Below, one piece after another: positions 10,247-32,920 of a stretch of DNA of 64,000 nt. The notes below the pieces were generated by a model. It was not told where the DNA came from. It saw only the letters and a list, made by a program, of their open reading frames with translations, and searched no databases. Position 1 is the stretch's first letter. Every line of letters starts with the position of its first letter. The DNA comes from Parcubacteria group bacterium 21-54-25 (lineage in GTDB: Bacteria; Patescibacteriota; Minisyncoccia; Phycocordibacterales; Phycocordibacteraceae): NCBI GenBank assembly GCA_002255585.1, contig NCBJ01000005.1:1066-65065 (forward strand), in the 5' to 3' direction. Both the position numbers and the translations under genes were made by a program.

Positions 10247-10260
10247 GTTTTTCGGTCTTT

Positions 10261-10298
10261 GCGCCCCTTCGCTTCGCGTTGGGGCGCTCTTTGTTTCC
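10261..10298 (+). terminator. Intrinsic terminator
   Basis: GCGCCCC-loop-GGGGCGC then TCTTTGTTTCC. Confidence 0.55.
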
Positions 10299-10322
10299 TA
10301 TATTTGATACAATCACTCCCAC

Positions 10323-12047: not shown

Positions 12048-12064
12048 TACCGCGCACGAATCCG

Positions 12065-12128
12065 CACAGCAGAAAAAGTGACCACTCCGGGGCGTTTGCC
12101 CAAGTCTTAGTCACTTTTTCTGCTGTGC
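12065..12128. repeat. Perfect 18-bp inverted repeat (stem) with 28-nt loop between recJ and rnhA
   Basis: GCACAGCAGAAAAAGTGA ... TCACTTTTTCTGCTGTGC. Confidence 0.7.
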
Positions 12129-12171
12129 AGGGTTTGCGAAACGCCCGTCATCGCACTGGTATACTGCACGC

Positions 12172-12591: not shown

Positions 12592-12600
12592 CTACGTTCC

Positions 12601-14112
12601 ATGCCGCTCTCCACAACCGGACGCGTGTTTTTTCTCGCGGCCGCTACTTTTGCGCTTGGCATTTTCATACGATCGCTCTACGTGCTTCCGATTTCGTTTG
12701 TCGCCATTGCCGCTCTTGCTGCAGTCGCGGCACTTGCGACATGGGTTGTTGCGCGGCAGCCAGTGTATATATTTTTTGGTGTGGCACTCGCCGCCCTTAC
12801 ATTTGGTGTGGTGCGCGTTTCAGTTACTCCACAAGAGCTGCCAAGCGCATTTGCAGACGAACTTGATACGGATGTGTCGCTCACTGGTACGGTTTCGGCG
12901 GCGCCGGACATTCGCGAAAGCAGTCAGCGCATCACCATTACGGTCTCAAAAGACAACGCGACGACGCGCGTGCTCGCCGTCGTCTCGCTCGGCACACCCG
13001 TGTCCTATGGTGAGCGCGTTACTGTGCGCGGGAAACTAACATCGCCACAATCGTTTGCCACCGACTATGGTCGCACTTTTCGTTACGATCGCTATCTTGC
13101 CGCCACTGGTGTCTTTGCCATCATGCCGCACGCGCTACTCACTGAAGTTGCACCGCCTTATGGTGTGTGGGCGCACGTGTATGGTGCGCTCATTGGAGTG
13201 AAGCGGTCATTTCTGCATGCGCTTGGGCTGGCGCTCCCGGAGCCGGCAGCTTCGCTTGCCGGCGGGCTTGTTGCGGGAGGCACCGAGGGACTTGGCGCGT
13301 CGCTCACGAGTGACTTCGTGCGTTCAGGCCTCATCCACATCGTCGTCCTTTCCGGCTACAACGTCATGATCGTTGCTGAGGCTGTGCTGTTCGCTCTTTC
13401 GTTTCTTGCGCGGCGCGCAGCTGCGGGCATCGCCGCGCTGGTCATCGGCGCGTTTGTGCTTGCCGCTGGTGCTGGCGCAGCAAGTATTCGCGCCGGGCTC
13501 ATGGCAGGCTTTGCGCTTTTGGCACGCGCAACCGGCCGTACGTACGACGTAACGCGCGCGCTCGTTGTAGCCGCGCTCCTGATGCTTCTTTGGAATCCAC
13601 TTCTTCTTGCATTTAGTCTCGGTTTCGATTTATCAATCATTGCGACACTCGGTCTCATCCTTGGCGTGCCGCTCATCGAACCGCACCTCGCTTTCATTAA
13701 AAATTTATTTCTGCGCGAAACCGCGGCCGCGACTATCACTGCACAAATTGCGGTGTTGCCGCTTCTGCTTTACGCCAACGGCCTCTTTTCGATTGTTGCG
13801 CTTCCTGCAAACCTGCTCGTGTTACCGCTCGTGCCGCTTGCAATGGCGACTTCAGCATTTGCCGGCCTTGTGGGTGTTGTGCTGCCGGCGCTTGCGCCTG
13901 CGTCAGCGCTTCCGGCATACGCGCTTTTAAGCTACATCGCGTGGGTAGTGCACGCCGCCGCCACCTTGCCGCTTGCGACGGTTGCAGTGCCGAGTTTCTC
14001 GTTTGTGTTTGTCATTCTTGCCTACGCGTTCCTCGCGCTCCCCGTGTACCGCCTCGCAAAAAATAAAAAACCGGCGCTCGCGAACACGAGCGCCAGCCAA
14101 CTCCTCCAGTAA
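12601..14112 (+). CDS. comEC: ComEC/Rec2 DNA-uptake channel: OB-fold (DUF4131) + competence membrane domain, no MBL domain
   Basis: N-terminal TM pair, then the OB-fold segment (starts VSLTGTVSAAPDIRESSQRITITVS, ends GRTFRYDRYLAATGVFA) and the competence-domain signature GLVAGGTEGLGASLTSDFVRSGLIHIVVLSGYNV; ends after last TM helix. Confidence 0.7.
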   Translation: MPLSTTGRVFFLAAATFALGIFIRSLYVLPISFVAIAALAAVAALATWVVARQPVYIFFGVALAALTFGVVRVSVTPQELPSAFADELDTDVSLTGTVSAAPDIRESSQRITITVSKDNATTRVLAVVSLGTPVSYGERVTVRGKLTSPQSFATDYGRTFRYDRYLAATGVFAIMPHALLTEVAPPYGVWAHVYGALIGVKRSFLHALGLALPEPAASLAGGLVAGGTEGLGASLTSDFVRSGLIHIVVLSGYNVMIVAEAVLFALSFLARRAAAGIAALVIGAFVLAAGAGAASIRAGLMAGFALLARATGRTYDVTRALVVAALLMLLWNPLLLAFSLGFDLSIIATLGLILGVPLIEPHLAFIKNLFLRETAAATITAQIAVLPLLLYANGLFSIVALPANLLVLPLVPLAMATSAFAGLVGVVLPALAPASALPAYALLSYIAWVVHAAATLPLATVAVPSFSFVFVILAYAFLALPVYRLAKNKKPALANTSASQLLQ

Positions 14113-14440
14113 CTGCGACTATTTCTTTTTTGTTCGTGCGAGATCCCGCCTTGCTTTTTGTACCACCTTGTTTCGTGCGAGTTTCCCGCGCCCCTGCAAA
14201 TTCCATCGCCGCACCGCCGCCTTCTTGTATGAGAATAGTAAATCGGAAGGAGAAGGTGTGGCGGTCTTCCTCCATGCGTCGCGCAAACCGAAAAGGAACG
14301 CGCCACACAAAAACTTCTTTCCCCTGCCAGATAACTCTCGTTGCCGCCTCCTCTTCTGTAATGCCCGCTCGCGTGAGTTCCCGCGCGAGCGACTCGTTTG
14401 TGAAAGCGTCTGTGAGAAGATACCACGCCGAGTCACTCAT
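14012..14440 (-). CDS. Hypothetical protein (first ~75 aa protein-like, remainder low complexity; may be shorter or decayed)
   Basis: GAGAGGAAA SD-like before ATG 14440; 3' 100 nt overlap comEC; a minus-strand terminator lies inside its 3' part. Confidence 0.25.
   Translation of the reverse strand: MSDSAWYLLTDAFTNESLARELTRAGITEEEAATRVIWQGKEVFVWRVPFRFARRMEEDRHTFSFRFTILIQEGGGAAMEFAGARETRTKQGGTKSKAGSRTNKKEIVAVTGGVGWRSCSRAPVFYFLRGGTRGARGTRRQE
14058..14094 (-). terminator. Intrinsic terminator in minus orientation, embedded in comEC 3' coding end
   Basis: GGCGCTCG-CGAACA-CGAGCGCC with A-tract on + strand (T-tract on - strand). Confidence 0.45.
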
Positions 14441-14558
14441 TGATTTTTCCTCTCAAACACAATGGTTCTTTAATCCGCCCCTACTTTGGCATGAGGAGGT
14501 CAGAGGGTCAACAAAAAGGAAATCCCGTGCAGCGTCAACTTTTTACTGCCTTTGGCAA

Positions 14559-17500
14559 TTACGCGCGCCTCTGTTTGCGCAGCTGGGCGCGATAAAACAA
14601 TACCGGCACCAAGACGAGCGTGAGCACGATGGCGAACGCGAGTCCAAACATAATACTGAAGGCGAGTGGCCCCCACGTGGCGTTGGTGAGCGAAAGAGGA
14701 ATCATGCCGATGACCGTGGTAATCGTTGTCAGAACGATGGGGCGCAAGCGTGTTGCTGCCGAGTCCACGACGACATCAATCGGCGCGGCCTCCGGGGTCG
14801 CGCGCAGATGACGAATCATTGAATCCATCAAAATGATTGCATGGTTGATGATGACGCCACCAAGCGCGATAACGCCCAGGAGTGACGAAAAAGAGATGGG
14901 CTGACCGGTGAGCGCCAAGCCATCAAGCACGCCAATAAGTGAGAGCGGCACGATGCTAATAAGGTAAAAAGTGTAGCGAAAGGAGTTGAACGCAACGATG
15001 AGAATCATAAACATAAGAACCAGCCCGGCGATAAGCGCGACAAACATTTGTGAGAAGGATTGGTTTATGCTCTTGGTGTCGCCGCCATAAGACACTGAGA
15101 CGCCGGGTGGCAGAGAGAGGGAGCTGATTTTTTTCTGAAACGCGCTCACAATAGCAGAGGCAGTTGTGTTTGAGCTTGGATACGCCGACACCGTTTCCAT
15201 ACGCACCTTGTCCTTGTGCACGATGCTTGCATTGTTTTGTGCGAGCGTGGCTGAAAGAATAGAACCAAGCAAGACCGGCCCCTGAGTTCCGTAGACGGTG
15301 AGGTTTTTAAGAGTGCCCAGCGTGGTGCTTGCGGTGTGTGATGGATTGGTACCCCCTGCGTTCAAGTTCATTTTTACCACGACATCCATGGTTTGATTCG
15401 GTTGGGTAATGCTAATTGCCTTGGTGCCGTTTATCGCACTGCGCAGGGTCTGGGCGACCGCAAGCGTGCTCACGCCACGCGCGGCGGCTTTCGCTCGGTC
15501 AATGGTGAAATCAAATTCCGTACCGTTATCTTGGGTACTGCTTGTCAGGTTGGTAACTCCGGGAATGGTTGCAAGCAGGTGTTTTGCGTTGTCGGCCGCA
15601 GTGATGATGTCGTTAAGGTTGTTTCCAAGAAATTCTATCTGCACGGGTGCGCCGCCGGGTGGCCCGCCCGTCACCTGCAGAACCTGCACTGTTGCATCGG
15701 TAATTGAAGCAAGTCTCTTTTGCAGGTCGTTTACCACGTACGTACTGGTGTACGGGTGTCCGGGCGGTAGGTTGACGGTAATGTTTGCGATGTTTGCCCC
15801 GCTTGCTGCATTTGCGAGCGCGCCGCCAGCCAGCGCGGACCCCTGTCCTACCGTTGTTTGAAAAGAATATACCTCGGGGTCTTTATACAGCACCGCCTCT
15901 ACCTGCTCCACTGCGCGGTTGGTGACCGCAAGCGTGGTGCCATAGGGTTTCGTGATACTGATAAAGACAAAATCTTGGTTATTTTGCGGAAGAAACACTG
16001 TCTGTACTACACCGAGAAGAGGGAGAGAGATTGAGACGGCAAAAAGGCCGGCGAGCAGCAGCAAGAATATTTTTTGCGTGTGCCGATGCGTTAGTATGCG
16101 TCGCAACATATTTTTGTACCACGCGGTAATGCGCGCCGTATAGTATTCCTGCTTCTCTTCAAAGGCGTTTGTATGTTTTTTACTCAAGACAATAGCCAGG
16201 AGCGGCACGAGGCCGAGCGATACAAAAATAGACGCAGTGAGAACGAAGATGAGCGTGTAGGGAATGCCAGCAATAAACTTTCCTACAATGCCAGAGATGA
16301 AAAAGAGCGGAACAAAAACAGCAACCGTTGCCATAGTGCCCGCGATAAGCGGCCACGCGTAGTCCGCGAGTGCTTGGCGCGCCGCAGCAAGCGCACCTCC
16401 ATTCCCTCGCATACGCGCGTGAATTGCCTCAGTAACGACAATACCGGAGTCCACCAAAATGCCGACTGCCAAAATAAGTGCAAACAAACTAATGAAATTG
16501 AGCGAGTTACCGGTCATGTACAGACCGATAAACGCGATAAGGAAGGAAAGGGGAATAGAAATCGCAGCAACAACTGCTTCGCGCCAACCAATGGTGATGA
16601 GCAGTACAAGCAACACCAACGCAACCGTTTCCACTCCAGTTTTCGCAAGATCACCGAGCTGTTTTCCAACCTGCACGCTCATATCGGTTGCGGGAGATAC
16701 GTAGACAGTAAAACCAGCAAGCGTTGTCTTTTGCAGAGACTGTAGCGCGTCCTTTACGGCGCTCGCTACGCCCTGCGTGGAGGCGCTGGACTGTTTGTAC
16801 ACCGAGAAGGTAATGGCATTTTGTGCGGGCTTTCCGCCCAGAGAAAGTCGCGAGTAGGTGGTCGCTGGCGCAAGACCATTAATCACCTGTGCTACATCGC
16901 GCACATACACCGCCGCGCCGTTTTTACTCGCCACGACGACGTTGTTGATAGTGGCGGGGTCTGTGATGCCGCCCTTGAAATTCACCGTATACGAAACACC
17001 GTTTGTTGAAATAGCGCCAACAGGTATAGGCGCATTTGCTGTTTGGATAGCGCCTATGACATCAGCGAGCGTAAGTCCGTATGCCGCAAGATTATTTTTA
17101 TTGACGATGACGTCGACCTGGCGATCCGGTACGCCCGCGACATTGACATCGGAAACACCGGACACGCGTTTCAGTGCGTCTGATACTGTTTGTCCCGTCT
17201 CCGACAAAAGAAGCGGGGGCACCGGCGCCGCGACTGACGCGATAAGAACCGGCGTATTGGAGAAGCTTACTTTTGTTACAGCGGGAGTGGACGCATCGGC
17301 AGGGAGGTTGGGAACGGCTTTTGACACTGCGTCGCGCAAATTTTGTATAGACTGATCAATGTTCGCATTCGCGTCAAACTGCACCGTGATAGTAGACACG
17401 CTGTCGCGCGAGGTAGACGTCATCGTATCAATATTGCTAATGCCCGATATCTGATCTTCAAGCTTGTTCGTGACAAGCGTCTCCATGTCGGTCGCAGACG

Positions 17501-17663
17501 CTCCGGTGAGCGTCGTGACGACGATGCCTTCCGCGATATTTACAGGCGGCTGTACTTCTTTGGGGATTTGGAGTAAAGAAAAAGAGCCAGCGATGATAAG
17601 CGTGGCGACAAGCACATAGCTAAACTGTCGCCGATCAAGAAAAAAATGCCACAGCCACAACAT
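14559..17663 (-). CDS. RND-family efflux transporter (AcrB/HAE1-like, 12 TM, two large periplasmic loops)
   Basis: 1034 aa, AcrB-type N-terminus MLWLWHFFLDRRQFSYVLVATLIIAG, duplicated TM bundles. Confidence 0.85.
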   Translation of the reverse strand: MLWLWHFFLDRRQFSYVLVATLIIAGSFSLLQIPKEVQPPVNIAEGIVVTTLTGASATDMETLVTNKLEDQISGISNIDTMTSTSRDSVSTITVQFDANANIDQSIQNLRDAVSKAVPNLPADASTPAVTKVSFSNTPVLIASVAAPVPPLLLSETGQTVSDALKRVSGVSDVNVAGVPDRQVDVIVNKNNLAAYGLTLADVIGAIQTANAPIPVGAISTNGVSYTVNFKGGITDPATINNVVVASKNGAAVYVRDVAQVINGLAPATTYSRLSLGGKPAQNAITFSVYKQSSASTQGVASAVKDALQSLQKTTLAGFTVYVSPATDMSVQVGKQLGDLAKTGVETVALVLLVLLITIGWREAVVAAISIPLSFLIAFIGLYMTGNSLNFISLFALILAVGILVDSGIVVTEAIHARMRGNGGALAAARQALADYAWPLIAGTMATVAVFVPLFFISGIVGKFIAGIPYTLIFVLTASIFVSLGLVPLLAIVLSKKHTNAFEEKQEYYTARITAWYKNMLRRILTHRHTQKIFLLLLAGLFAVSISLPLLGVVQTVFLPQNNQDFVFISITKPYGTTLAVTNRAVEQVEAVLYKDPEVYSFQTTVGQGSALAGGALANAASGANIANITVNLPPGHPYTSTYVVNDLQKRLASITDATVQVLQVTGGPPGGAPVQIEFLGNNLNDIITAADNAKHLLATIPGVTNLTSSTQDNGTEFDFTIDRAKAAARGVSTLAVAQTLRSAINGTKAISITQPNQTMDVVVKMNLNAGGTNPSHTASTTLGTLKNLTVYGTQGPVLLGSILSATLAQNNASIVHKDKVRMETVSAYPSSNTTASAIVSAFQKKISSLSLPPGVSVSYGGDTKSINQSFSQMFVALIAGLVLMFMILIVAFNSFRYTFYLISIVPLSLIGVLDGLALTGQPISFSSLLGVIALGGVIINHAIILMDSMIRHLRATPEAAPIDVVVDSAATRLRPIVLTTITTVIGMIPLSLTNATWGPLAFSIMFGLAFAIVLTLVLVPVLFYRAQLRKQRRA

Positions 17664-17666
17664 AGT

Positions 17667-19274
17667 TTAGGGGGTGCCAACAATGACCGACTGGCCGCTT
17701 GAAAGCCCGCGCGCGTCAATCACAATACGCAAAGAAGCGCTCACGTCTGGCTGAAGAGCCGCCATCCCATCGGCAATGTCTTGAATCGTAACCGGATGCG
17801 CGACGAGCGCGCTCGAACTGCTCACCGTAAAGATTTCCGCTCCCGCCGGTGTTATTTTTATCGCGGTGAGAGGAACAAAAAGAAGCGGGCCGCTGTATGT
17901 TGAAGTAACTCGATAAGAAAGTACAACGGGTACGGTTTCTCCATCGGTAAGCGTTTGTGGGGAACCAATGAGACCTACCCTGACTTCAATTTTGTTTGTC
18001 AGGGGGTCGCGCGCTGGCGCGATAAAGGTTATGACACCTGGGAAAGAGTCATTTATGATAGCCCTATCGCCCACGGCCAGTTTCGCGGCGTCGGTGGCGG
18101 AAACGGCCGTTTTGATATACAGAGCATGCGGATTTGAAATAACCGCAACAGGGGAAAACGTTGGTACGTAGTCACCAAGCGTGATGGGTAAACTGACGAT
18201 TGTTCCGCTAACAGGGCTTCGAACAATCGTTTTTTCAAGTGCTGCACGTGCGGCGTCATAGCCGCCCTGCGCTTGCTTTACTTGCGCCTTTGCAAGAGCG
18301 ATGGCACCGGCCGTGCCGCCTGTCGCTACGTTTTGTGCCGCTTGTGTTCCTGAAATAGCGTTGTCATACGCACTCTTTGCCGCAATAAGACCGGAAAGGG
18401 CGGCGTTCACTTCACTACGGCCTGCAGAAACAGATGCAGCGTAGCCCGCAAGGGTACTGGCAGACACGCTTGCGCTCGGCTGGGTTTCATTGATAGCAGC
18501 GGTAAGGTTTCCAAGAAATTGTGTAGCAAAATTCGCTGCAGTGATCACGTCCGTGCCGTGCGCGTCGAGTGTTGAGCTTGCGGTATCTTGCACCTCGGGA
18601 CGAATCGTCGCAAATATCGTTTGAAGCTGCCTTCGCTCTTCTTGCAACAGATTTATAAGTTTATTATCGGGTACGATAAGCGTTAGTTGTGCGGAAATTG
18701 TGCGAGGATTGGAGAAGAGCACGTCTGCTTTCGTGTGTATCGCGTCGTCAAGCGCGGCATAGGTACTCTGGAGCGCATTTGCAAAGGCGTTTTGTGCGTT
18801 ATTCTGCACACTCGTGCTTTGCACAACGGAAATATGGGACCCCGTTGCTGATGTGCCTTCAGCATTTGCAACGCCAACCTGCGCTGCTTCGTACGCGCCC
18901 TGCGCCTGCAAGACGACCGCCTGTTGGGAGCTATTTTCAAAGGAGGCAATGATTTCACCTGCGGAAACATGGTCACCAAGGGCGTGTGGAAGAGAAACAA
19001 TCTCGCCTGCCGTTTGCGAGAGCACGGTTGCCTGATTGAGTGACGTTACCGTGCCGATGACCGGAAGCGAACTTGTCGCAGATGAAAAACTCGCAATAGG
19101 AGCAACGGTTACCTGCACGGCGTTAGAAAGAGACGTATCGCCTGCTGCTGGTGTCGTGCGTGCGGTGTACGCGTGTATCCCCCCGCCAAGTGCGACAAGA
19201 AGAACAAGACCTCCAAAAAACGACCACAGCGGCGCGCGTGCGATAACGTTACGAAACGGTGTCAGTAGAGACAT
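17667..19274 (-). CDS. Efflux periplasmic adaptor (membrane fusion protein, HlyD/AcrA family)
   Basis: N-terminal TM anchor, long Ala/Gln-rich coiled-coil hairpin, biotinyl-lipoyl and beta-barrel segments; 3-bp gap to RND gene. Confidence 0.7.
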   Translation of the reverse strand: MSLLTPFRNVIARAPLWSFFGGLVLLVALGGGIHAYTARTTPAAGDTSLSNAVQVTVAPIASFSSATSSLPVIGTVTSLNQATVLSQTAGEIVSLPHALGDHVSAGEIIASFENSSQQAVVLQAQGAYEAAQVGVANAEGTSATGSHISVVQSTSVQNNAQNAFANALQSTYAALDDAIHTKADVLFSNPRTISAQLTLIVPDNKLINLLQEERRQLQTIFATIRPEVQDTASSTLDAHGTDVITAANFATQFLGNLTAAINETQPSASVSASTLAGYAASVSAGRSEVNAALSGLIAAKSAYDNAISGTQAAQNVATGGTAGAIALAKAQVKQAQGGYDAARAALEKTIVRSPVSGTIVSLPITLGDYVPTFSPVAVISNPHALYIKTAVSATDAAKLAVGDRAIINDSFPGVITFIAPARDPLTNKIEVRVGLIGSPQTLTDGETVPVVLSYRVTSTYSGPLLFVPLTAIKITPAGAEIFTVSSSSALVAHPVTIQDIADGMAALQPDVSASLRIVIDARGLSSGQSVIVGTP

Positions 19275-19283
19275 ATAAAAAGA

Positions 19284-19715
19284 TTAGGCAAGTGCGCCAT
19301 TTATTTTTTTAGTAAGGCGTACATACTGAGTAAATTCTTGGTCTGTGAGCGTTGAAAACAATCGCTTGAGATGGATGAGGATGGCATGCTGTACGCGCGC
19401 CATGCCGCGTCGCGCTGTGGGAGAGAGCGTCAACACACTTTCTCTACGATCAACAGTGCTCGATTTTTTTATGACGTACTGTTTCTTGACGAGCTCGTTG
19501 ACGAGCTGCGTCGCGGCGCTGCTGGTGATGCCAAACGTGCGCCGAATATCTTTTATAGAGGTACTCCTCTCTTTATAAATAAAGTGGAGCACCATCCACT
19601 GCGTGTGAGTCACCGAAAGGCCGTGCGTACGACACAGGTCTTTTAAGTTGGTGTGCTGACGCATTTTATGGAACCCCGCAAGCATGTTTTGCAGCTCTGC
19701 TGTTCGGGTATCCAT
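19284..19715 (-). CDS. MarR-family transcriptional regulator
   Basis: 143 aa; winged-HTH LSVTHTQWMVLHFIY...IKDIRRTFGITSSAATQLVNELVKKQYVIKKSSTVDRRESVLTLS; heads the MFP-RND operon. Confidence 0.8.
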   Translation of the reverse strand: MDTRTAELQNMLAGFHKMRQHTNLKDLCRTHGLSVTHTQWMVLHFIYKERSTSIKDIRRTFGITSSAATQLVNELVKKQYVIKKSSTVDRRESVLTLSPTARRGMARVQHAILIHLKRLFSTLTDQEFTQYVRLTKKINGALA

Positions 19716-19787
19716 AATAGATAAGATACTTACCTATTTGCCTTTTGTTGTCAAGTCGCTCGGTTGTGGGGCGGGCGTCCGCTCTTT

Positions 19788-19804
19788 GACCAACTAGGTC
19801 AAGA
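19788..19804. promoter_or_regulatory. Perfect palindrome TTGACC-aacta-GGTCAA upstream of marR (candidate operator)
   Basis: 6-bp arms, 5-bp spacer, 73 bp upstream of marR ATG. Confidence 0.35.
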
Positions 19805-20013
19805 GATCGTGGTTAGAGGAGAGAGTTTTTTGTTTTCATACGACAATGTATCGTACCCAAACAGATCTCACACGATCCCTTGACCCGACTGACCAATTCG
19901 ACCCACCGCACAACAGGGCTTCGCCACCACACCCCTCTTTCCTGTTTCGCTCTTTTGAGCTCATCAGCGCGAGCACACACTCGCGGACAGAGGGGAGCAG
20001 CGCTCCCCCGTAT

Positions 20014-20281: not shown

Positions 20282-20326
20282 ATCTCTTTGGAAACTCGAA
20301 CGCGTGCTCAAGTTCCCAAAAGATAG
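20282..20326. repeat. 45-bp perfect direct repeat, copy 1 (internal dyad around ACGCGT)
   Basis: ATCTCTTTGGAAACTCGAACGCGTGCTCAAGTTCCCAAAAGATAG identical to 20957-21001. Confidence 0.9.
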
Positions 20327-20956: not shown

Positions 20957-21001
20957 ATCTCTTTGGAAACTCGAACGCGTGCTCAAGTTCCCAAAAGATA
21001 G
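20957..21001. repeat. 45-bp perfect direct repeat, copy 2
   Basis: Identical to 20282-20326; 25 bp upstream of the 20931 start. Confidence 0.9.
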
Positions 21002-21034
21002 CCTGACTCGATACAAACAAAGCACCGAGTCAGG
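21002..21034 (-). terminator. Hairpin CCTGACTCG-15nt-CGAGTCAGG downstream of minus gene 21050-21499
   Basis: 9-bp perfect stem immediately after stop codon. Confidence 0.4.
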
Positions 21035-21049
21035 CAAGAACAACATGAG

Positions 21050-21499
21050 TCAGTCGTCGTAGGCTCCGCTGAGCTCTACGAAGCCCTCCTCAACCGGAAA
21101 CTCAGACATGTGATCATCGGCAGTGGTGTCCCACCGCCAGTCTTTCGAGGACTCCACCATCAGGAGTCCTCGCTGCTCCGCTTCGCGGAACAGCGCCCTA
21201 AAGGACTCCGATAAGGTACCGTGGAAGTTCAGGGCGTGCCGCCTGCCGTCAAACTCCACGGTCACACTCACGAGCCCTTCTTGCCCCGGCCCCTCCAAGA
21301 GCGTATGGAGAACCAGTCTCCATACATTTGGCGGCTCATGCCGCCCCATTTTCAATACGATCTGCCCCGGGGAGCAGATCAGCTCTTCTCCCTCGTTGCT
21401 TCTCAGGTCGGCCGCGAGGCCGGCCCCGATACCCACCAGGAGCTCTACGAGCTCCTGGTACTGCCGCCTCGTGGCGGCCACGGTCGTGTGAACTTTCAT
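21050..21499 (-). CDS. Hypothetical protein (149 aa, acidic C-terminus)
   Basis: GGAGGA SD 3 nt before ATG 21499; GC-rich codon usage. Confidence 0.5.
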   Translation of the reverse strand: MKVHTTVAATRRQYQELVELLVGIGAGLAADLRSNEGEELICSPGQIVLKMGRHEPPNVWRLVLHTLLEGPGQEGLVSVTVEFDGRRHALNFHGTLSESFRALFREAEQRGLLMVESSKDWRWDTTADDHMSEFPVEEGFVELSGAYDD

Positions 21500-21829
21500 A
21501 ATTCCTCCTCGCCCGTTTCTGGGCTTAAGAATTTTTCCGAGAAACCGCTCGGGGCGGATGGCGGCGACGTACCACCTTAATCCCCTTATAAATGGGGAGT
21601 ATTTATTTAGGAATTGCTTTGCAATCCCTCATACCGCACCCAGCGCACGGATTGCGCGATGAGTCCGGCAGCGAGGAATAACAACGCGGTTGTTACACAC
21701 GCGAACAATTGTTCCGCGTTATTCCCAAACTACCTATTCAATTTTCAAGCAACATCCTGCCTCTTTAAATCGCAGGGAGAAGTCGGTGGCGACGCAATAA
21801 AATAACTGCCCTCGCCGACCGGCTTCTTC

Positions 21830-22000
21830 CAACGAAAAATGACTGGCTCTAGTAGGAGAGCCAGTCATTTTTCAGTCTGGAAACTTCGGGGACGCCGCAT
21901 ATCGTATGCTTTGATCGCGTTCTCCCTAAGACTCTCTTCTCTAAGAAATCATCTTTTATGTTGATTTGTAAGGTTCTTTCGTGCCCGCGCTCTTTCTTTG
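21830..22000 (-). ncRNA. Candidate ~170-nt small RNA (promoter-to-terminator unit with no ORF longer than 11 codons)
   Basis: Minus-strand TTGACA(22036-22031)-17 nt-TGcTAATAT(22013-22008) extended -10 promoter; intrinsic terminator 21836-21872; AT-rich 670-bp noncoding gap. Confidence 0.35.
21836..21872. terminator. Bidirectional intrinsic terminator
   Basis: AAAAATGACTGGCTCT-agtagg-AGAGCCAGTCATTTTT, 15-bp perfect stem flanked by A/T tracts. Confidence 0.7.
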
Positions 22001-22007
22001 TGTCTGT

Positions 22008-22036
22008 ATATTAGCATGGACAGTATATTTTGTCAA
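22008..22036 (-). promoter_or_regulatory. Near-consensus sigma70-type promoter (minus strand)
   Basis: TTGACA / 17-nt spacer / TG-n-TAATAT. Confidence 0.5.
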
Positions 22037-22172
22037 GTGCTTTTCCTCGGTATTCCTGCGGGCTTGTAACCTCATTACCTGCCACAATATTAGCACGAGT
22101 ATTAATATATGTCAAGCCCTCGACCGGTGCCGTAAGGCATCATCGATCAGGGGCTTGTTTTTAGCTTTTTAT

Positions 22173-22772
22173 TTATCTGCCACGCTCCGTCGCGTCGAAG
22201 CGGGCTTCGACGGCGGACCAGTTGAGGTTTTTAAAGAAGGCGTCCACGTAGCTCGACTTCTCAGCCGGGACGTAGTCCACCATGAAGGCGTGCTCCCAGA
22301 GGTCGAGCGCAAGCAGGACCGGAAGCCCCGCGAGCTGACCAATTTCGTGGTCGTTTACGAAGACGGTGTGGAGTGTTTTGCCTGCCGGATCGAAATACAC
22401 GACGACCCAGCCGATGCCGCGGCTGCCGGCGACCTCACGCACGTGGGCAATGAGATTTTCGTAGCTGCCGTATTTTTCCTCGGCCGCCTTTGCAAGTGCG
22501 CTGGCGGTATTTTGTTCCTTTGCGCCACCTTCAAACTGCTCGAAATAATGCTCATGCATGCGCATACCGTTGAACTCAAACGCAAACCGGCGGCGCAGCT
22601 CGGCGATGAGGTACGCATTCGCTTCTTTCTCTTCCGCTAGCTCGGCTATTTTCTGCCGGATGAGGTTAGTGTGTTTTACATACCCAGCGTAAAGCCCGAG
22701 GTGCACCTCTATTTGTGTAGCGGACAATCCAGAAAGTTCGGGGATGTTGAATGTGCGTGTTTTGTATTCCAT
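22173..22772 (-). CDS. sodA: Fe/Mn superoxide dismutase
   Basis: FNIPELSGL N-terminus, DLWEHAFMVDY metal-ligand signature; start set to ATG 22772 (ORF track extends to 22934). Confidence 0.85.
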   Translation of the reverse strand: MEYKTRTFNIPELSGLSATQIEVHLGLYAGYVKHTNLIRQKIAELAEEKEANAYLIAELRRRFAFEFNGMRMHEHYFEQFEGGAKEQNTASALAKAAEEKYGSYENLIAHVREVAGSRGIGWVVVYFDPAGKTLHTVFVNDHEIGQLAGLPVLLALDLWEHAFMVDYVPAEKSSYVDAFFKNLNWSAVEARFDATERGR

Positions 22773-22825
22773 ATATACATAGTATACACGAACGCGCGCC
22801 TTGTTTCGCGTGGTACCATTTTCGT

Positions 22826-23240: not shown

Positions 23241-23621
23241 ATGCCTGAAAAATTTCCAACAAACAAACCAGCATCAACAGCAGCAAGCGGTACTCATAAC
23301 GAAGGTTCTGACGAAGACATCATGGTACAGAAAGTACACGACGCGCTGCGCCCCGAAAACGAGCGCAGAGGGAATCCGCTTACCGGCGAAGAACTTCTTT
23401 TTGTGGCAAGAGTATATGCGGAGAATGCAAGGAAACGCGGACAGAATGTGGACCCAGAGAACATTCCCATGGACGAACTGTTTGCCGCTCGGGAAGAGAT
23501 TAAAAAAGTCGGTATACCGATTGTCGATCCAGGGACGGGAGATGTTCTTCACGCTAAGGATGAGGAGAGTGTGCGCAGGACGATAGAACAACACTCTAAA
23601 GACATCCGTGAAGGGAACTAA
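23241..23621 (+). CDS. Hypothetical protein (126 aa, charged)
   Basis: Clean ORF followed by bidirectional terminator; TATACA 10 nt upstream of ATG. Confidence 0.45.
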   Translation: MPEKFPTNKPASTAASGTHNEGSDEDIMVQKVHDALRPENERRGNPLTGEELLFVARVYAENARKRGQNVDPENIPMDELFAAREEIKKVGIPIVDPGTGDVLHAKDEESVRRTIEQHSKDIREGN

Positions 23622-23655
23622 CAACGCATAACCACAATCTCGCGCGTAAACGTAA

Positions 23656-23712
23656 AAAAGAAGGGCCGCCGCGATCTTCGGACCGCGACGGCCTTGGTGG
23701 TTTTTGGTTTTA
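23656..23712. terminator. Bidirectional intrinsic terminator between convergent genes
   Basis: AAAAAAG-AAGGGCCGCCGCG-loop-CCGCGACGGCCTT-GGTGGTTTTTGGTTTT. Confidence 0.65.
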
Positions 23713-23904
23713 ATGGATCCTCTCGTTTTTGCGCGCCTGATCTCTGGATGCCAGGACGCGCATCATCCGCAACGCCTGGAGCATTTTCCAGGGCGGCCAG
23801 TTCCTGCCGCGCAGTTTCCGGACGGTCTCCTCGCCCGGGTCGTACTCCAGGCGTAGCGAGGCGATTTGCCGCTCCGCCTCTGCATCATCTGGCATCTCTC
23901 GCAT
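23710..23904 (-). CDS. Small hypothetical protein (64 aa, Arg-rich)
   Basis: GAGGAGA SD 6 nt before ATG 23904. Confidence 0.4.
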   Translation of the reverse strand: MREMPDDAEAERQIASLRLEYDPGEETVRKLRGRNWPPWKMLQALRMMRVLASRDQARKNERIH

Positions 23905-23963
23905 ATCGGCTCTCCTCGTCAAGGAACTTTACTTAAACAAAGTGTACAATACATTTTAAGACT

Positions 23964-24824
23964 ATGCAAACTGTCAGCCGCTCGCATACCGCCCTGTATC
24001 TTGGAATTATCGCGCTCTTGGTTGTCAATGCGTTCATCTGGTTAGCAGTATTTTCTGCTGGAGACGGCATGCTGCACATATCGTTTCTCGCTGTGGGCGA
24101 GGGCAGAGCGGTGCTCGTGCAAAGCCCGACCGGTGCAACCGTGCTCATAGACGGCGGCCCAGACCACGCAGTGCTGCGCGCGCTGCCCGCGGTGCTTGGG
24201 CCGCTCAACCGATCGCTCAATCTTGTCATTCTCACCAACCCGACCACCGCAAATGCTGGCGGGGTACCCGGCATCTTTGATCGCTACGACGTGCACGCAT
24301 TTATGGCTCCGGCCGTGCCAAACAGCAGCGTCGCCGCGCGCATGGCGGCCGCGGCCGCCGGAAACGAGCCGCAACTCGCCTATATTTCTGCAACGCGCGG
24401 CGCGCGCGTGGTTCTCGGCGCCGGCGCGTTCATCGACGTGCTTGCGCCAGATCGCGACGTGTCGGGCGTACGCGCCGAAACGGGTTCAACCGTGCTGCGT
24501 ATTGTGTATGGCGACACCGCCTTTCTGCTGCCAAGCGATGCGCCCGTTGGCGTTGAGCGTTGGCTGGCGCAGCTCGACGCTACGAGCACGCTTTCAAGCA
24601 CCGTGCTTGCCGTGGGGCACTTTGGCGCAAAAGACACGGTCGCTGGCGACTGGCTTTCGAAGGTGCGTCCGACGTACGCAGTCCTGTCCGTTGGACACAA
24701 TCCGTACGGCTACCCCGCCACCACGACACTCGCCACACTTGTGCGTGCCGGTGCGCGCGTGCTCACGACCGCGAGTGGCACCGTGGCGTTTGTGAGTGAT
24801 GGACAAGCGGTGTGGCGAAAATAA
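23964..24824 (+). CDS. ComEC/Rec2-type metallo-beta-lactamase domain protein with N-terminal TM anchor
   Basis: ISFLAVGEGRAVLVQSPTGATVLIDGG and VGHNPYGYP match ComEC C-terminal MBL domain; single TM helix at N-terminus. Confidence 0.65.
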   Translation: MQTVSRSHTALYLGIIALLVVNAFIWLAVFSAGDGMLHISFLAVGEGRAVLVQSPTGATVLIDGGPDHAVLRALPAVLGPLNRSLNLVILTNPTTANAGGVPGIFDRYDVHAFMAPAVPNSSVAARMAAAAAGNEPQLAYISATRGARVVLGAGAFIDVLAPDRDVSGVRAETGSTVLRIVYGDTAFLLPSDAPVGVERWLAQLDATSTLSSTVLAVGHFGAKDTVAGDWLSKVRPTYAVLSVGHNPYGYPATTTLATLVRAGARVLTTASGTVAFVSDGQAVWRK

Positions 24825-24854
24825 AAAAAGGTGCTGGCCGTCACGCCAGCACCG

Positions 24855-25523
24855 TCAATGTATCGTGGCTATTTGTTTTTCAAGCCACGCAATAACTTTT
24901 TTGTAGTCTGAAACAAGGATCTGGTGCCGGAGCACGAAGGGTAGGTAGTACTCTCGTGTCTCCGTTACCTTCATCACTACTTTCTTGCGCGGTATGATGT
25001 CGCACGAAAGACTCATGAGGTTGTCGAGACGGTCGGGAAGCTTCGTTTCAAACAACACCCGTTGGCGCGCAAGATCACGGAAGCGCTGGTGGTAGATGCG
25101 GTGCGCCTCATCACTTGAACGCCCTTCCTTGGTGCGTGGCGCGGACACCGCCGATACAATTGCCTCTACACCGTAGTTGAACTCGCGCTCCACAAACTCG
25201 CTCGTCCATATACCAAGCTCTTGTTCTTCATCAAACTCTCGGTTGTCGTGCAACAGACACGCAGTCAGCGTGTGCGCATCGCGCACCCCGACACGTTCAA
25301 GCGCAATAAGCGCGACGCGGCGCGGGTGTTCGATATACGGTTCTCCACGCAGTCGGCGCACGTCTGCAAACAGTTCCTCAGTCAAATCATGCGCTTTCAC
25401 GATCATTGCGTATTCAGCACTTTTCTTTAGAAAGTGCCGCCGCACGTGCTTCAGAAACGCTTCTCGACTTTCGGCGTTCTCGAGGAACGCCATTCGGTGC
25501 GGGTAAAACCCGTATGCGACCAT
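24855..25523 (-). CDS. HD-domain protein with RelA/SpoT-type (p)ppGpp hydrolase fold
   Basis: YIEHPRRVALIALERVGVRDAHTLTACLLHD resembles SpoT HD motif; AAGGAGG SD 6 nt before ATG 25523. Confidence 0.6.
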   Translation of the reverse strand: MVAYGFYPHRMAFLENAESREAFLKHVRRHFLKKSAEYAMIVKAHDLTEELFADVRRLRGEPYIEHPRRVALIALERVGVRDAHTLTACLLHDNREFDEEQELGIWTSEFVEREFNYGVEAIVSAVSAPRTKEGRSSDEAHRIYHQRFRDLARQRVLFETKLPDRLDNLMSLSCDIIPRKKVVMKVTETREYYLPFVLRHQILVSDYKKVIAWLEKQIATIH

Positions 25524-25595
25524 GGCAGCCTCCTTGGTTTGTCTATCTGTAAATGTGCAACTGGCCTCTCTATAGCACGGGCCGTGGGTATACAC

Positions 25596-25630
25596 AAACC
25601 CCGAGCCGGGCCTCGCCCGGCTCGGGGTTT
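25596..25630. terminator. Intrinsic terminator downstream of rpmB
   Basis: AAACCCCGAGCCGGG-cctcg-CCCGGCTCGGGGTTT perfect 15-bp stem. Confidence 0.65.
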
Positions 25631-25641
25631 GTGCGCCAAAC

Positions 25642-25884
25642 CTAAATCAGCCCGGCCTTTTTTAGTGTTGCGTACGCGCCGTTTTTCTTGATGTGGCGCA
25701 TGCCTTTCACGGAAACAGATGCCGTTATGGTCTTGCCAAGCTCCGCTACGAAAATGCGGCGCCTTTGCAAATTCGGCTGGCGCCGCGTCTTGCCCGTCGG
25801 GTTAAATTGCGTCGCACGCGTGCGGTTTGAGTACCGCCCACCGACTTGGGAGGTCTTGCCTGTAATGTCGCAAATGCGTGCCAT
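25642..25884 (-). CDS. rpmB: 50S ribosomal protein L28
   Basis: MARICDITGKTSQVGGRYSNRTRATQFNPTGKTRRQPNLQRRRIF L28 signature, 80 aa. Confidence 0.8.
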   Translation of the reverse strand: MARICDITGKTSQVGGRYSNRTRATQFNPTGKTRRQPNLQRRRIFVAELGKTITASVSVKGMRHIKKNGAYATLKKAGLI

Positions 25885-25918
25885 AGTGCTGCGCATGGTA
25901 CCATGCAAAGATAGCGAT

Positions 25919-26560
25919 ATGCAACTCGTCGACAGCAACACACTTTTCTTTATACTCATCCTCATATTTTCGGTTATCGTGCACGAGGTGGCGCACGGGT
26001 ATGCGGCGCATTCGCTCGGTGACCCGACCGCACGACTTGCAGGTCGTCTCACCCTAAACCCCATACCCCACATAGACCTTTTCGGGTCGATACTCATCCC
26101 TGCATTTCTTGTGCTCACCAACGCAGGAATTCTTTTTGGGTGGGCGAAGCCGGTACCGTACAATCCATACAATCTAAAAAATCAGCGATGGGGCGAAGCA
26201 CTCGTCGCGTTTGCTGGGCCGGGTACCAATCTGCTCATTGCGGTCATTTTCGCATTCATCGTCCGATTTTTCGGCACACTGCTTTCGCCGCAGGCACTGT
26301 CTCTTGCCGGGGCTATCATCCTCATAAACTTATTCCTCGGTCTCTTCAACCTCATTCCTATTCCGCCCTTTGACGGCTACACCGTGCTCTCTCGCGCCTT
26401 GTCGTATCGCCACGCGTTTGCTTTGCGCGCGTTCGAGCAACGCGTCCGTTCTTGGGGGCCGGTTGGACTTCTTGTTGTGCTATTCCTATTTATCACACTC
26501 CTTTCCGGCCCGTTTGCAAACCTTGTCTTCTTGCTTTTCCACCTGCTCGTGGGAGGATAA
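25919..26560 (+). CDS. Site-2 protease family (M50) membrane metallopeptidase
   Basis: HEVAHG zinc motif, NLIPIPPFDGY second motif, 5-6 TM; start ATG 25919 (ORF-track extension overlaps rpmB). Confidence 0.75.
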   Translation: MQLVDSNTLFFILILIFSVIVHEVAHGYAAHSLGDPTARLAGRLTLNPIPHIDLFGSILIPAFLVLTNAGILFGWAKPVPYNPYNLKNQRWGEALVAFAGPGTNLLIAVIFAFIVRFFGTLLSPQALSLAGAIILINLFLGLFNLIPIPPFDGYTVLSRALSYRHAFALRAFEQRVRSWGPVGLLVVLFLFITLLSGPFANLVFLLFHLLVGG

Positions 26561-26620
26561 GCGCACGTCTCGCGCCGCGAAAATCCAATACGCGCTTATT
26601 TATCAGTCTAAAATAACACT

Positions 26621-27103
26621 ATGGCAACCGAAAAAGCACCACAATCAACACTTAAAAACCTCTGGACTATCGCGACCATATCTTCGGCCATCGACAAGGA
26701 CAACAACACCCTTTCTCTCTTTGATATTCTCGAGGAGCTGACGCTCCAGGTGAGCGGGAGCATGCCCGAGCGCACGGTTATTCCCGTTAACCACCACCTT
26801 CTGAGCCTTTGGGAGCGCGAGGAGACCGGCACCCCGCTCACGCTCAAGTTTAAGGTGGTGCTGCGCGATCCGATAGGGAATATTCTGCACGAAAACCAGG
26901 CGGAAGTGGTCATGCAGGCGCCACACAAGCGCGCGCGTTTCCGCGCACAATTCAACGGCTTCCCAGTGAGTGTCCCTGGCATTTACCGCTACGAAATAGT
27001 GAGTCTTGAGCCGGAAAAAACGGGCGCGGAAATCCTCGGCGGGGTTGCCATAGAGGTCAAAGTGGCTCGTCAACCAATCAAAAGTCCGTACAGCCCGAGC
27101 TAA
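26621..27103 (+). CDS. Hypothetical protein (160 aa)
   Basis: Clean ORF, no recognisable motif. Confidence 0.45.
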   Translation: MATEKAPQSTLKNLWTIATISSAIDKDNNTLSLFDILEELTLQVSGSMPERTVIPVNHHLLSLWEREETGTPLTLKFKVVLRDPIGNILHENQAEVVMQAPHKRARFRAQFNGFPVSVPGIYRYEIVSLEPEKTGAEILGGVAIEVKVARQPIKSPYSPS

Positions 27104-27270
27104 GAGCCCAAAAGCAGTGTTTTAGGCATGTTTTGCCAGCGCAGGAGCTCTTTAGAATACATTTTTGAAAAATTGCCATATTGACAGCGATTGTGAGGGG
27201 TAGAGAATGAATGCACCACAACGCTTGGGGCGCTGGTTGGTTACTCTCTTATAATAAATAGTAAAAACCT

Positions 27271-30200
27271 ATGAAGAAAAGCTCGCTTCTACTTCTATCT
27301 GTTCTCACTACGCGCACGGCTCGCATCGTCGCGCTATCCCTTTCTGTCTCCGCCATCGCCATGGGCGGATTTTTTATTAGCCAGGCGTATGCATCATCAA
27401 CAGTGAACGTTATAACGTTCGATAAACCCATTAGCGGAAGCTATGTGCGCGGTACAACTGCACTTGCTTGGCAGTTCACCCAGACGGTATTTTCCAGTAC
27501 GGCTAATCTGACATACTCAAGCAACTTCTCGTCTTGGCAGAATAATGTCATTGGATCATCGATCGCGACGACAACACTTAATTATGATTGGCCGACAGTA
27601 GACATTCCAAATGGCACATACGAAGTTCGTTTAGAGGATAGTCTAAATAATAGCGGTACTTCTGCAACGTTTAATATAGACAACACGCCCCCCACAACAA
27701 CGCTCGCGACAACGACGTCCCCAGACCCGACAACGGGTTGGTACAACAACACAAGCGGATACACGCCGCCCCAAATCACACTCACCTGCACCGACAACTT
27801 GAGCGGCTGCTTAGAAATTGTGCAGAATTGGTACAACGCGACCTCAAGTGCGCTTGTCGCGTCCGCGACAACAACTGGTGCGACTGCAACGATAGACCCG
27901 AGTTCCATCCCGCAAGGCGACAACATTCTGGTCTACTACTCAGAGGACAACGCGGTTGATAAACATGGTGTGCACAACGTCGAGAAAGCGCATCAGGCAG
28001 AGTTCAAAGTAGACACCCAAGCCCCAAGCATCTCTTCCTACACACTCAACGGCAAGGCCGCTGACGCCTATCTCAATCCGAATCTCCCCAACGCCTCAAC
28101 GACGATCACCCTTACCGCAAACGAGCCGGTTGATTGGTCTTCTATACAAATGGTCAACGCTAGTGGAAGCTCGGTAAAAACGTTTACCGTCAGCTCAACT
28201 TATGACGGGACGAATTCCGCAACGGTAACTTGGGATGGTAAGACTGCCACCAGCACTGCTTCTGAAGGTATATACACCATCAAGGCGCATATTATCGATC
28301 TACATGGGAATGATGTTAAAAATATTTCTCTCACACTGTACACCATTACGATTGACACAACGCCGCCAACCCTCACCCTTTCTTCTCCCGTGGCGAATAC
28401 CGTGTACGAGAGCAAAACGGCCAACGGTAACACAACAGCAAGCACGACCGCTCTTGATTTCACCGCCTCTGACGCCAACCCGCTCACGTACACTTATTCT
28501 ATTGACGGCCACGCGACCACGAGTCCAGCGACGGCTCAAAATGGCGTGCCTACGACCGCCGCTCTTTCCGGTTCCGGCCTCACCGACGGGCAGCACACAC
28601 TCGTCGTGACGGTGACCGATGGCGCGGGTAATAGCGTCTCCTCGGCGCCTGTCTCGTTTGTTTTTGACAACAACAAAACGCTCACCGTGAGCAATCAAGC
28701 AAGCGACAACGCCGACTTCAGCTCTATCGGCGCTGCGGTCGCGGCTTCTGACGCGGCAGGGCTCTCGGGCGAGGCAATCAGTGTCTATAAAGGCACTGGT
28801 TCGTACGCCGAAAACGTCACGCTTGATAACCCATTCACGCTTGAAAGTCAGAGCTCTTCTAACGAAGCAGTAATTAAGGGCACGGTAACGATTCCTTCCA
28901 CGGGAAGCGGTACCACCGTGCAGAACCTCTCATTTACGAACCCAGGTGCGAGCACGGCACTCGTTATTAGCGGCGCAAGTAATGTAAGGGTCGCTAGCAG
29001 TACGTTTAACGGTATCGGTACTGGTACTGCAACGGGGAACATTCAAGCAATAGACGTAAATAGTAGCGGAGGTACTTCAATGTCGGATATCACCATCTCT
29101 GGTAACACAATTACAAATGTTGGGAATAACAGCAACGGTAGTTCAAAAGGCATCTACATTGGCGACTCGACCGGCTCAAACACGATCTCGAACGTGACAA
29201 TTGATGGGAATCAAATCTCAAGCATAACTGCCGATAATTCGAACAAAGGCGCCTATGGTGTTCTGGTGAATCATGCAACTTCGGTCACGGGCGCAACAAC
29301 CGGACTACTCATTCAAGACAACACCATCTCGGGACTCAATGGCCTGTGGGCACACGCAATTGGTCTTGAAGGCAACACGCCGAGCGCAGTCGTGACAGGG
29401 AACATCATCAGTGGTCTCACTGATAACAAAGATGGTACCGACGACGTGGGTGTTATGTTGCAAGACGATGGTGGCGTGTCGACGGTCACTATATCTAAAA
29501 ACCAATTCGCGTCTGACATCATCGGCGTAGGAAACGCGACGACCACTTTGACCGCGACCACAACCGCTACGGGTAACTGGTGGGGGAGTATCCAAGGTCC
29601 GAAAACTTCTGCATACGCCACGATTAGTAATCCTTATGGAGATGGTGCTTCTGTGTACGGTCCGGTCTCTTATACACCGTGGTGCACCGACTCGTCATGT
29701 TCGTCGACTGGTAGCGCGCCAACGGCAGTTGTAACTAATCCTCCCCATAATCCAACAAATGTTACAAGTCCTCGTTTTACCGTTGGCTCCGCCACTTCTT
29801 CAGCCAGTACGGTTGTGTATTACAAATATCAGCTTGACGGGTATCCGTGGAGTGCAGCGACCTCAACGAGCGTTGCCATCGCAACATCAAGTCTTGCCGA
29901 CGGCTCACACACACTGAACGTCCTTGGCCGCGACCAGGCAGGCAACTGGCAAACGACGCCGACCACGTACACGTGGACGATTAATACGACAGCACCAGTC
30001 CTCAAGGAAGTCACACCAATTACGACACCGACCGCAAGCACGACGGTGTCGTACGTGTTCAACACAACCAAGCCAGGCAGCCTTGCTTACGCAGGCAGCT
30101 GCAACAACGGCTCGCTCAGAAGTGTGAGCGCCGAAGGTAACGCAACGACGACCTTTAGTTCGCTTTCTGATGGTCTGTACAACTCGTGCACCATTACCGA

Positions 30201-32265: not shown

Positions 32266-32272
32266 TAGATAT

Positions 32273-32914: not shown

Positions 32915-32920
32915 TTACTC

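Follow-up and report, generated by a model that had tools for sequence, protein, structure and literature searches.

The window analysed here is a stretch of 64,000 nucleotides (64 kb) from contig NCBJ01000005.1 of Parcubacteria group bacterium 21-54-25, an uncultivated member of the Kaiserbacteria in the Candidate Phyla Radiation (CPR; Patescibacteria). On its minus strand, the gene for a 199-amino-acid Fe/Mn superoxide dismutase (SOD; 22173..22772; Pfam Sod_Fe_C, E = 7.2e-20) is the conserved upstream neighbor of a 673-bp noncoding gap (22172..21500). The gap is followed by a gene on the same strand for a 149-amino-acid protein (21050..21499), which is annotated as hypothetical and is preceded by a GGAGG Shine-Dalgarno sequence. 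The GC content of the gap is 0.42-0.46, compared with about 0.58-0.61 in the flanking genes. An earlier note, made from the letters of this DNA, had placed a discrete small RNA (sRNA) of about 170 nt here, in an AT-rich interval within a gap of about 670 bp between sodA and a hypothetical gene with a Shine-Dalgarno sequence, and these values bear out its description of the surroundings. CPR genomes are tiny and contain little noncoding DNA, which makes 673 bp without a gene, yet under selection, conspicuous. The element in this gap comprises promoter-like sequences (P1 and P2), an RNA body, a terminator-like hairpin (T1), and a conserved 3' region, and is a candidate noncoding RNA (ncRNA) gene nested in the 3' region of SOD.

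SOD orthologs were compared at 80 Kaiserbacteria/Paceibacterota loci from species-representative genomes. Loci L001-L006 are identical to the window. A homolog of the element directly 3' of SOD was found at one of the 80 SOD-anchored loci, L009 (nhmmer E = 3e-39), whose SOD is 71% identical; L121 is an identical copy of L009 on a longer contig. Between the window and L009, overall nucleotide identity is 66% for the element and 70% for the SOD gene. Over aligned columns, the 5' body of the RNA is 73% identical, T1 80%, a second hairpin (H2) 67%, the following linker 72%, and the 3' domain 58%. The earlier note had suggested an alignment with relatives as a check. The one relative that carries the element conserves both the promoter blocks and the T1 stem, the latter with compensatory changes.

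P2 (22008..22036, minus strand) is a predicted promoter of the sigma-70 type. It consists of a perfect -35 hexamer, TTGACA (22036-22031), a 17-nt spacer, and an extended -10 element, TGcTAATAT, with TGC at 22016-22014 and TAATAT at 22013-22008; 10 of 12 hexamer positions match, plus the TG. The near-perfect promoter of the earlier note is therefore present at 22036-22008, and the note missed an upstream copy. This copy, P1 (22087..22115, minus strand), has the same form, TTGACA-17-TGcTAATAT, and lies 79 nt upstream of P2. The likeness of the two is confined to the functional blocks (70%). P1 is found in the window species only and is absent from L009. The pattern TTGACA-N14-TGNTAATAT, with at most two mismatches, occurs at two sites in the 64 kb, P1 and P2, against 0.18 expected. 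Promoter scans of 1-20000, 23501-43500, and 44001-64000 returned no more promoter-like sites than shuffled sequence would give. These ranges make up most of the remaining window and hold no site in which a perfect -35 is joined to both a 17-nt spacer and TG; P1 and P2 alone have all three. The sole other TG-extended promoter-like site in the window is on the plus strand at 58485-58536 (TTGACG-17-TAGGAT, a 9/12 match). It has a terminator-like hairpin within 10 nt (GACGCTCTCCGCGTC, then TTTTTTCTTA), which is an odd juxtaposition.

The L009 counterpart of P2 is TTGACA-17-TGcTAAGAT, and the spacing of 17 is kept. The -35 block CTTGACAAA is identical at 9 of 9 positions and the -10 block CATGCTAA at 8 of 8, while none of the 10 intervening spacer positions is shared. 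This pattern reads as the footprint of a promoter and not of an RNA element. Both its sequence and its phylogenetic footprint are those expected of a sigma-70-type extended -10 promoter. In the window, P2 starts 137 nt past the SOD stop codon. In L009, the SOD stop codon, TGA, falls inside the -35 hexamer TTGACA itself, and therefore nothing can terminate SOD transcription ahead of the element in that species.

T1 (21826..21879, both strands) resembles a bidirectional intrinsic terminator, and no other terminator lies between it and SOD. Its arms, 21834-21850 and 21857-21873, form a perfect 17-bp stem with a 6-nt loop. The outer pairs are made by an A5 tract and a U5 tract, after which comes CGUU. 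The earlier note had described a hairpin of 15 bp with a U-tract at 21836-21872; the hairpin and U-tract stand, and the stem is longer than it had stated because the two tracts pair. T1 has a folding energy of -33.1 kcal/mol (z = -9.2 against shuffles), and its L009 ortholog -39.6 kcal/mol (z = -7.8). The sequence 3' of the stem is UUUUUCGUU in the window and UUUUCGUU in L009. The base of the stem has been rebuilt between the species, from UGA/UCA in the window to GCGGG/CCCGC in L009, with the pairing and the A/U tracts kept. A stable stem followed by a U-tract, with compensatory change and a retained U-tract in two species, is what is expected of an intrinsic terminator. Elsewhere in this genome, canonical terminators are likewise built of a stem between an A-tract and a T-tract. 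One example, at 47916-47950, has a 16-bp hairpin with AAA on one side and TTT on the other (AAAGAGCCATAACGCAC..GTGCGTTATGGCTCTTT, then TTTATATCGT), an intrinsic terminator of the bidirectional type in the style of T1.

Terminator scanning and folding found no credible terminator between SOD and T1 in either the window species or L009. A weak, imperfect hairpin without a U-tract lies 3' of the SOD stop (22120..22172, minus strand; -10.8 kcal/mol, z = -1.7). It was not flagged by the terminator scan, is no credible terminator, and falls in an alignment gap in L009, which lacks both this hairpin and P1 and retains P2. Two relatives without the element, L107 and L126, have a canonical terminator directly 3' of SOD. 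In the two element-bearing genomes, T1 appears to fill the role of this SOD-proximal terminator, and the promoter and RNA body are placed between the SOD stop codon and T1. The RNA is thus less separate from sodA than the earlier note had it: it has a promoter of its own, but a terminator dedicated to SOD is missing, and the RNA overlaps the 3' untranslated region (3'UTR) of SOD. The earlier note had counted such an overlap against its proposal. We read it as the layout of an sRNA embedded in the 3' end of an mRNA and equipped with its own promoter.

The same facts could describe merely a long SOD 3'UTR with its terminator, in which P1 and P2 are inactive and the sequence is conserved for mRNA stability or another 3'UTR function. 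No closer SOD terminator exists in either species, the L009 stop codon abuts the element, and the element was found beside SOD only. This explanation is nevertheless very unlikely. The conservation of P2 is promoter-like, with hexamers and spacing kept and a spacer that matches at 0 of 10 positions, and P1 repeats precisely the functional blocks. Moreover, the SOD genes of closer relatives lack such a 3'UTR, and the conservation past T1 would be left unexplained.

The 5' body of the RNA (21880..22003, minus strand) is purine-rich, and transcription is predicted to begin at about A22001-22003. This body contains the fully conserved blocks UCAACAUAAAA, AGAGAGUCUU, and AAGUUUCCAGAC, some conserved blocks being unpaired, and small hairpins (helices 2 and 3) with compensatory changes. 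Within the predicted transcript, no closed open reading frame (ORF) on the sense strand is longer than 11 codons, in agreement with the earlier claim that none exceeds this length. A 44-codon ORF opens inside the T1 hairpin and exits the interval; it is not conserved. The roughly 330 nt between T1 and the 149-amino-acid gene hold no credible ORF, and a 103-codon open frame of L009 is broken in the window. No conserved reading frame was detected by tblastx between the window and L009, where patchy matches were equal across six frames and contained stops. Three independent annotations call no gene inside the element. A 121-amino-acid antisense ORF of L009 matched only an identical copy among 5.8 billion proteins, and a 63-amino-acid ORF of the window returned only low-complexity noise from 1.84 billion representatives.

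A degraded SOD copy or another pseudogene was also considered and set aside, as no SOD-derived remnant and no protein-like frame is present. The broader possibility that the element is a non-functional remnant, be it a decayed gene, a piece of a mobile element, or an arrangement due to chance, draws on its patchy distribution and on its position beside orphan genes, where synteny breaks. We regard it as extremely improbable. The element occupies the same position in two species whose SODs are 71% identical, at 66% nucleotide identity compared with 70% for SOD and 38% for background, and it carries compensatory changes. It is present as a single copy in the window, and has no phage, plasmid, or viral match.

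The conserved unit does not end at the hairpin, as the earlier note had assumed. Beyond T1, conserved structure at 58-72% identity runs on for about 230 nt; near 21600, identity falls to 38%, the background level. H2, a long imperfect hairpin (21778..21827, minus strand), follows directly after T1 and contains three double-compensated pairs (helices 8 and 9). In the window its folding energy is -26.0 kcal/mol (z = -3.7), and in L009 -31.4 kcal/mol (z = -4.5). A linker, UUGAAAA..AUAG.UAG..ACGC.GAACAA (21700..21777, minus strand; 72% identity over 21700-21765), is predicted to be mostly single-stranded or in long-range helices, with alternative pairings. The 3' hairpin domain (21600..21699, minus strand) closes the conserved unit. 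Its helices 11-13 contain 6 double-compensated pairs, as well as several G-U pairs that are possible on the minus strand only. The terminal part of the domain may alternatively form a short hairpin, GGGAUUGCA..GCAAUUCC, and in L009 the tip of the domain has a 23-nt insertion. A candidate sigma-70 or sigma-54-like promoter seen by eye in the linker was rejected, as it is not conserved in L009. With conservation continuing to about 21600, the 170-nt RNA can be at most one product or one domain of a larger unit, which spans about 400 nt. What stands of the earlier proposal is a candidate ncRNA gene with conserved promoter and terminator and no conserved frame; what does not stand is the end of the unit at the hairpin.

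Structural evidence was obtained from the two species together. When the fold of one species was projected on the other, 95 of 129 pairs were kept, compared with 76.8 +/- 5.5 expected under a null of independent substitutions, and 1 of 2000 permutations scored as high. The reciprocal projection gave 2 of 2000, and the opposite strand was weaker, with 25-32 of 2000. The RNAalifold consensus contains 90 pairs, 15 of them changed on both sides, compared with 0-4 in slid controls. On the minus strand, its cells include 24 G-U and 0 A-C combinations. The consensus energy is -94.8 kcal/mol on the minus strand and -84.3 on the plus strand, and most of this difference arises 3' of T1 (-54.5 compared with -45.0). 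From the lower minus-strand energy and the G-U pattern, the whole conserved unit looks like minus-strand RNA. An RNA on the plus strand converging on the bidirectional T1 was rejected, as no plus-strand promoter converging on T1 was found and the structure and G-U pattern favor the minus strand.

The consensus also holds two long-range helices that enclose T1 and H2. These raise the possibility of a single structured ncRNA of about 400 nt, from 22001 to about 21600, in which T1 is an internal helical arm and the halves are joined by long-range pairing. One long-range helix (columns 84-92:301-309 of alignment A2) has 8 pairs, 2 of them double-compensated. The other (columns 106-116:247-259) has 11 pairs, of which 6 are changed and all are still canonical, and its G-U pairs exist on the minus strand only. 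The joint consensus energy is -94.75 kcal/mol, compared with -88.2 when the halves are folded separately, and conservation is unbroken across T1. The split model covaries as well as the joint one, however, with 18 double-compensated pairs compared with 15, and single-sequence minimum-energy folds favor local hairpins here. T1 itself has the look of a terminator: a perfect hairpin of 17-19 bp with U4-5, whose tracts were kept while its base was rebuilt. Stable RNAs normally avoid internal terminator-like signals, and no terminator defines a 3' end at about 21600. We consider a single RNA of this length doubtful. Two sequences cannot fix the 3' extent from structure.

A second alternative assigns the element to the gene that follows. 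Here, it would be a cis-acting leader or attenuator in which P2 drives the downstream gene or genes, the 5' body senses a signal and sets T1, and the 3' domain is the remainder of the 5'UTR. In both species a same-strand gene without a detectable promoter of its own follows the element, no terminator closes the conserved unit, and T1 is set amid conserved sequence, as in riboswitch and attenuator leaders. In addition, a by-eye reading suggests a putative antiterminator, in which the conserved block AGAGAGUC pairs with the 5' arm of T1. Alternative pairings can be drawn, but two sequences do not discriminate between them. Known leaders, however, track a gene family, and here the downstream genes are unrelated: the 149-amino-acid protein is an orphan, and the window and L009 downstream proteins show no significant blastp match. 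A leader would thus be conserved far better than the gene that it controls. No riboswitch, T-box, or leader family matched at E <= 10, and sequence after the terminator, which is conserved here, is normally not conserved in riboswitches. On balance, a leader is unlikely, somewhat more so than the single long RNA.

The reading that we favor, at about even confidence, is that the element is an independently transcribed ncRNA gene nested in the SOD 3' region and that T1 is leaky. P2, a very strong sigma-70-type promoter, would start minus-strand transcription at about 22001, and P1 would reinforce it in the window species. Most transcripts would stop at T1 and its U-tract (about 21835-21831), and the resulting structured RNA would be about 170 nt long. 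The SOD mRNA would also end at T1, because SOD has no terminator of its own, and the same sequence would then be carried as the SOD 3'UTR. With this co-termination, the RNA would be both co-expressed with SOD and expressed independently. Read-through of T1 would extend the RNA by some 230 nt, to about 21600, with the conserved structured 3' domain made up of H2, the linker, and the distal hairpin, and would continue into whichever orphan gene follows. The firing of P2, the termination at T1, and its partial nature are predicted from sequence signals. The product would act as an RNA, most plausibly as a trans-acting regulator or by binding protein.

Several points weigh against this favored reading. 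Were T1 efficient, the 3' domain would have no visible promoter, and the model holds only if termination is leaky. The conserved unit lacks a terminator where it ends (about 21600), so the long form would physically be an mRNA leader. Only two independent sequences are available, which makes covariation statistics weak, and with two sequences a 170-nt RNA plus a second domain is inseparable by covariation from a single RNA of about 400 nt. The search for target complementarity in the 64-kb window and L121 gave a longest match of 13 nt, compared with 11-15 nt for shuffled sequences. Next to SOD, the element is absent from the loci of 79 other species and from 7 more contigs of SOD relatives, and therefore it appears to be dispensable or relocated in most relatives. 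The conserved structured domain past the terminator is an unexplained feature; it could reveal a mechanism of regulated read-through.

A more far-reaching possibility is that the element represents a novel class of large structured RNAs in CPR bacteria/Kaiserbacteria, about 400 nt long and with an internal conditional terminator. The locus would yield an abundant short RNA and, whenever T1 is bypassed, a long RNA that switches on the downstream orphan gene. We hold this only tentatively and doubt it more than we credit it. If true, the class would be an RNA-based expression platform, set at a synteny breakpoint, in which the strongest promoter of the region serves a recently acquired orphan gene.

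The distribution of the element was examined widely. Searches of the 80 SOD loci with nhmmer, using a single sequence and a two-sequence profile, and with conserved blocks and motifs recovered L009/L121 only. A pattern scan of metagenomes gave 16 matches, all attributable to chance, and two scans of viral contigs and blastn against phages and plasmids found no similarity. The contigs of ten SOD relatives that are closer or had not otherwise been screened contained no element. Closer SOD relatives (73-81% identity) are without it, and L125 has no element despite a downstream MarR gene in common (59% identity). A covariance model of the 5' unit, run over 0.7 Mb, gave a sole new match, in L084, which is the terminator of an 88-amino-acid gene. 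At L103, a palindromic unit (GGACTTCGTAAGTCC / GGACTTACGAAGTCC) in multiple copies fills the region after SOD (4600-4830 and 5215-5260). These units look like a family of repeats similar to repetitive extragenic palindromes, and a 73-amino-acid ORF called across them is probably spurious.

The identity of the element was also tested against known RNA families. In Rfam 15, a check that the earlier note had proposed, no family matched anywhere in the window at gathering thresholds. A permissive search (E <= 10) of both the window and L009 copies gave matches far below gathering scores. These were generic hairpin matches (a miRNA model) to both strands of T1, a few weak fragments with E-values of at least 2, and, in the L009 copy, two antisense fragments, of Ms1 (21 bits; gathering score 162) and sobemo_FSE (19 bits). 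ARAGORN found no tRNA or tmRNA. An RNase P RNA was considered, as GAGGAGAGUCUU in L009 resembles the CR-I motif, which we take to be GAGGAAAGUCC; the candidate was rejected, with no Rfam match at E <= 10. 6S RNA and Ms1 were rejected as well, the former having no match and the latter a noise-level match on the wrong strand. A T-box was suggested by AUUAAGGUGGUACGUCG (21575-21559, minus strand), which resembles a consensus presumed to be AAUUAGGGUGGUACCGCG. This sequence is outside the conserved unit, is missing in L009, and has no Rfam match, and the likeness is probably chance. A type III antitoxin (ToxI-like) repeat array was excluded, since the element has no tandem repeats and no direct-repeat family, and the downstream proteins have no toxin match in PADLOC or Pfam. 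Antisense or s-SodF-like pairing to the SOD mRNA or to window genes was not found above chance.

The SOD gene is apparently leaderless. An extended -10-like sequence, TGtATACT (22788..22781, minus strand), ends 8 nt 5' of its ATG at 22772, and no Shine-Dalgarno sequence is seen upstream of this start. Identical copies of SOD and of the 149-amino-acid protein are present in two NCBI metagenome-assembled genomes and one Logan assembly. The 149-amino-acid protein matched only itself among 5.8 billion proteins, and has no Pfam, PHROG, or PADLOC match. Its gene is closed by a canonical terminator (21001..21035, minus strand) with a 14-bp stem and then TATCTTTT, which would set the outer limit for any read-through transcript. 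The L121 gene downstream of the element (9194-9499) encodes a 101-amino-acid protein with a weak Pfam match to ART-PolyVal (ADP-ribosyltransferase-like). A PIN-domain gene and a ParE toxin gene are also near the L121 element, in a toxin-rich and variable neighborhood.

Beyond the 149-amino-acid gene, a perfect 45-nt direct repeat, ATCTCTTTGGAAACTCGAACGCGTGCTCAAGTTCCCAAAAGATAG, occurs at 20282-20326 and 20957-21001, its only two copies in 64 kb. Each copy is internally an imperfect palindrome. On the minus strand, the copies lie 20-25 nt 5' of the starts of small hypothetical genes (177 amino acids; 82/89 amino acids), and both are just upstream of a MarR-family regulator gene (19715..19284). 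The repeat may be a shared operator or a 5' regulatory element. An integron-like platform, with a strong promoter, variable orphan cassettes, and 45-nt palindromic repeats, was considered for the region and rejected. No attC core motifs were seen in the repeat, the repeat occurs only twice, and the annotated neighbors include no integrase.

Among known systems, 6S RNA and Ms1 resemble the element in having strong and often tandem promoters, a length of about 170-400 nt, and no coding potential. A 6S RNA gene can also be co-transcribed with a downstream gene, as in ssrS-ygfA of E. coli. The predicted fold of the element differs, being multi-hairpin and not a rod with a central bubble, and its distribution is patchy, unlike that of a housekeeping RNA. 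Riboswitch and attenuator leaders share with it the order of promoter, structured RNA, intrinsic terminator, and same-strand gene without its own promoter. The element differs from them in having no Rfam cis-regulatory match, unrelated orphan genes downstream, and conserved sequence after the terminator. CPR bacteria are not known to have an Hfq or ProQ context, and searches of the literature turned up no sRNAs described from Kaiserbacteria or any other CPR group.

A small RNA tied to a SOD 3'UTR has a precedent in Streptomyces coelicolor. There, s-SodF is a stable RNA of about 90 nt derived from the 3'UTR of the Fe-type SOD gene sodF (PMC3919588). It arises by processing and not from a dedicated promoter, and its action depends on 19 nt that match the sodN mRNA (PMC3919588). 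The element, in contrast, is preceded directly by the conserved strong promoter P2, which sets it apart from processed sRNAs, and no long complementary stretch beyond chance expectation was found for it in the 64-kb window or L121.

The closest layout is that of sRNAs embedded in the 3' ends of mRNAs and transcribed from their own promoters, such as DapZ (in dapB), MicL (in cutC), MicX, and ArgX (PMC9438474). The DapZ promoter is located just upstream of the dapB stop codon (PMC9438474). The element has no homology to any of these sRNAs, no seed-target pairing was identified for it in the 64-kb window and L121, and those sRNAs lack a conserved structured domain of about 230 nt past the shared terminator. 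What the element has in common with DapZ and MicL is a promoter at or overlapping the 3' end of the upstream coding sequence, as with the SOD stop in the -35 hexamer of L009, a terminator that would be common to the sRNA and the upstream mRNA, and an RNA that can arise both with and independently of its host gene. We therefore regard it as a credible new ncRNA locus of a general kind that is already known, in a lineage for which we found no characterized example. If its transcription is confirmed, the RNA would be physically coupled to an oxidative-stress enzyme, SOD, and would offer a concrete target for metatranscriptome mining. Like DapZ and MicL in their own hosts, it would be an sRNA embedded in an mRNA 3' end, and the first example of this arrangement in Patescibacteria.

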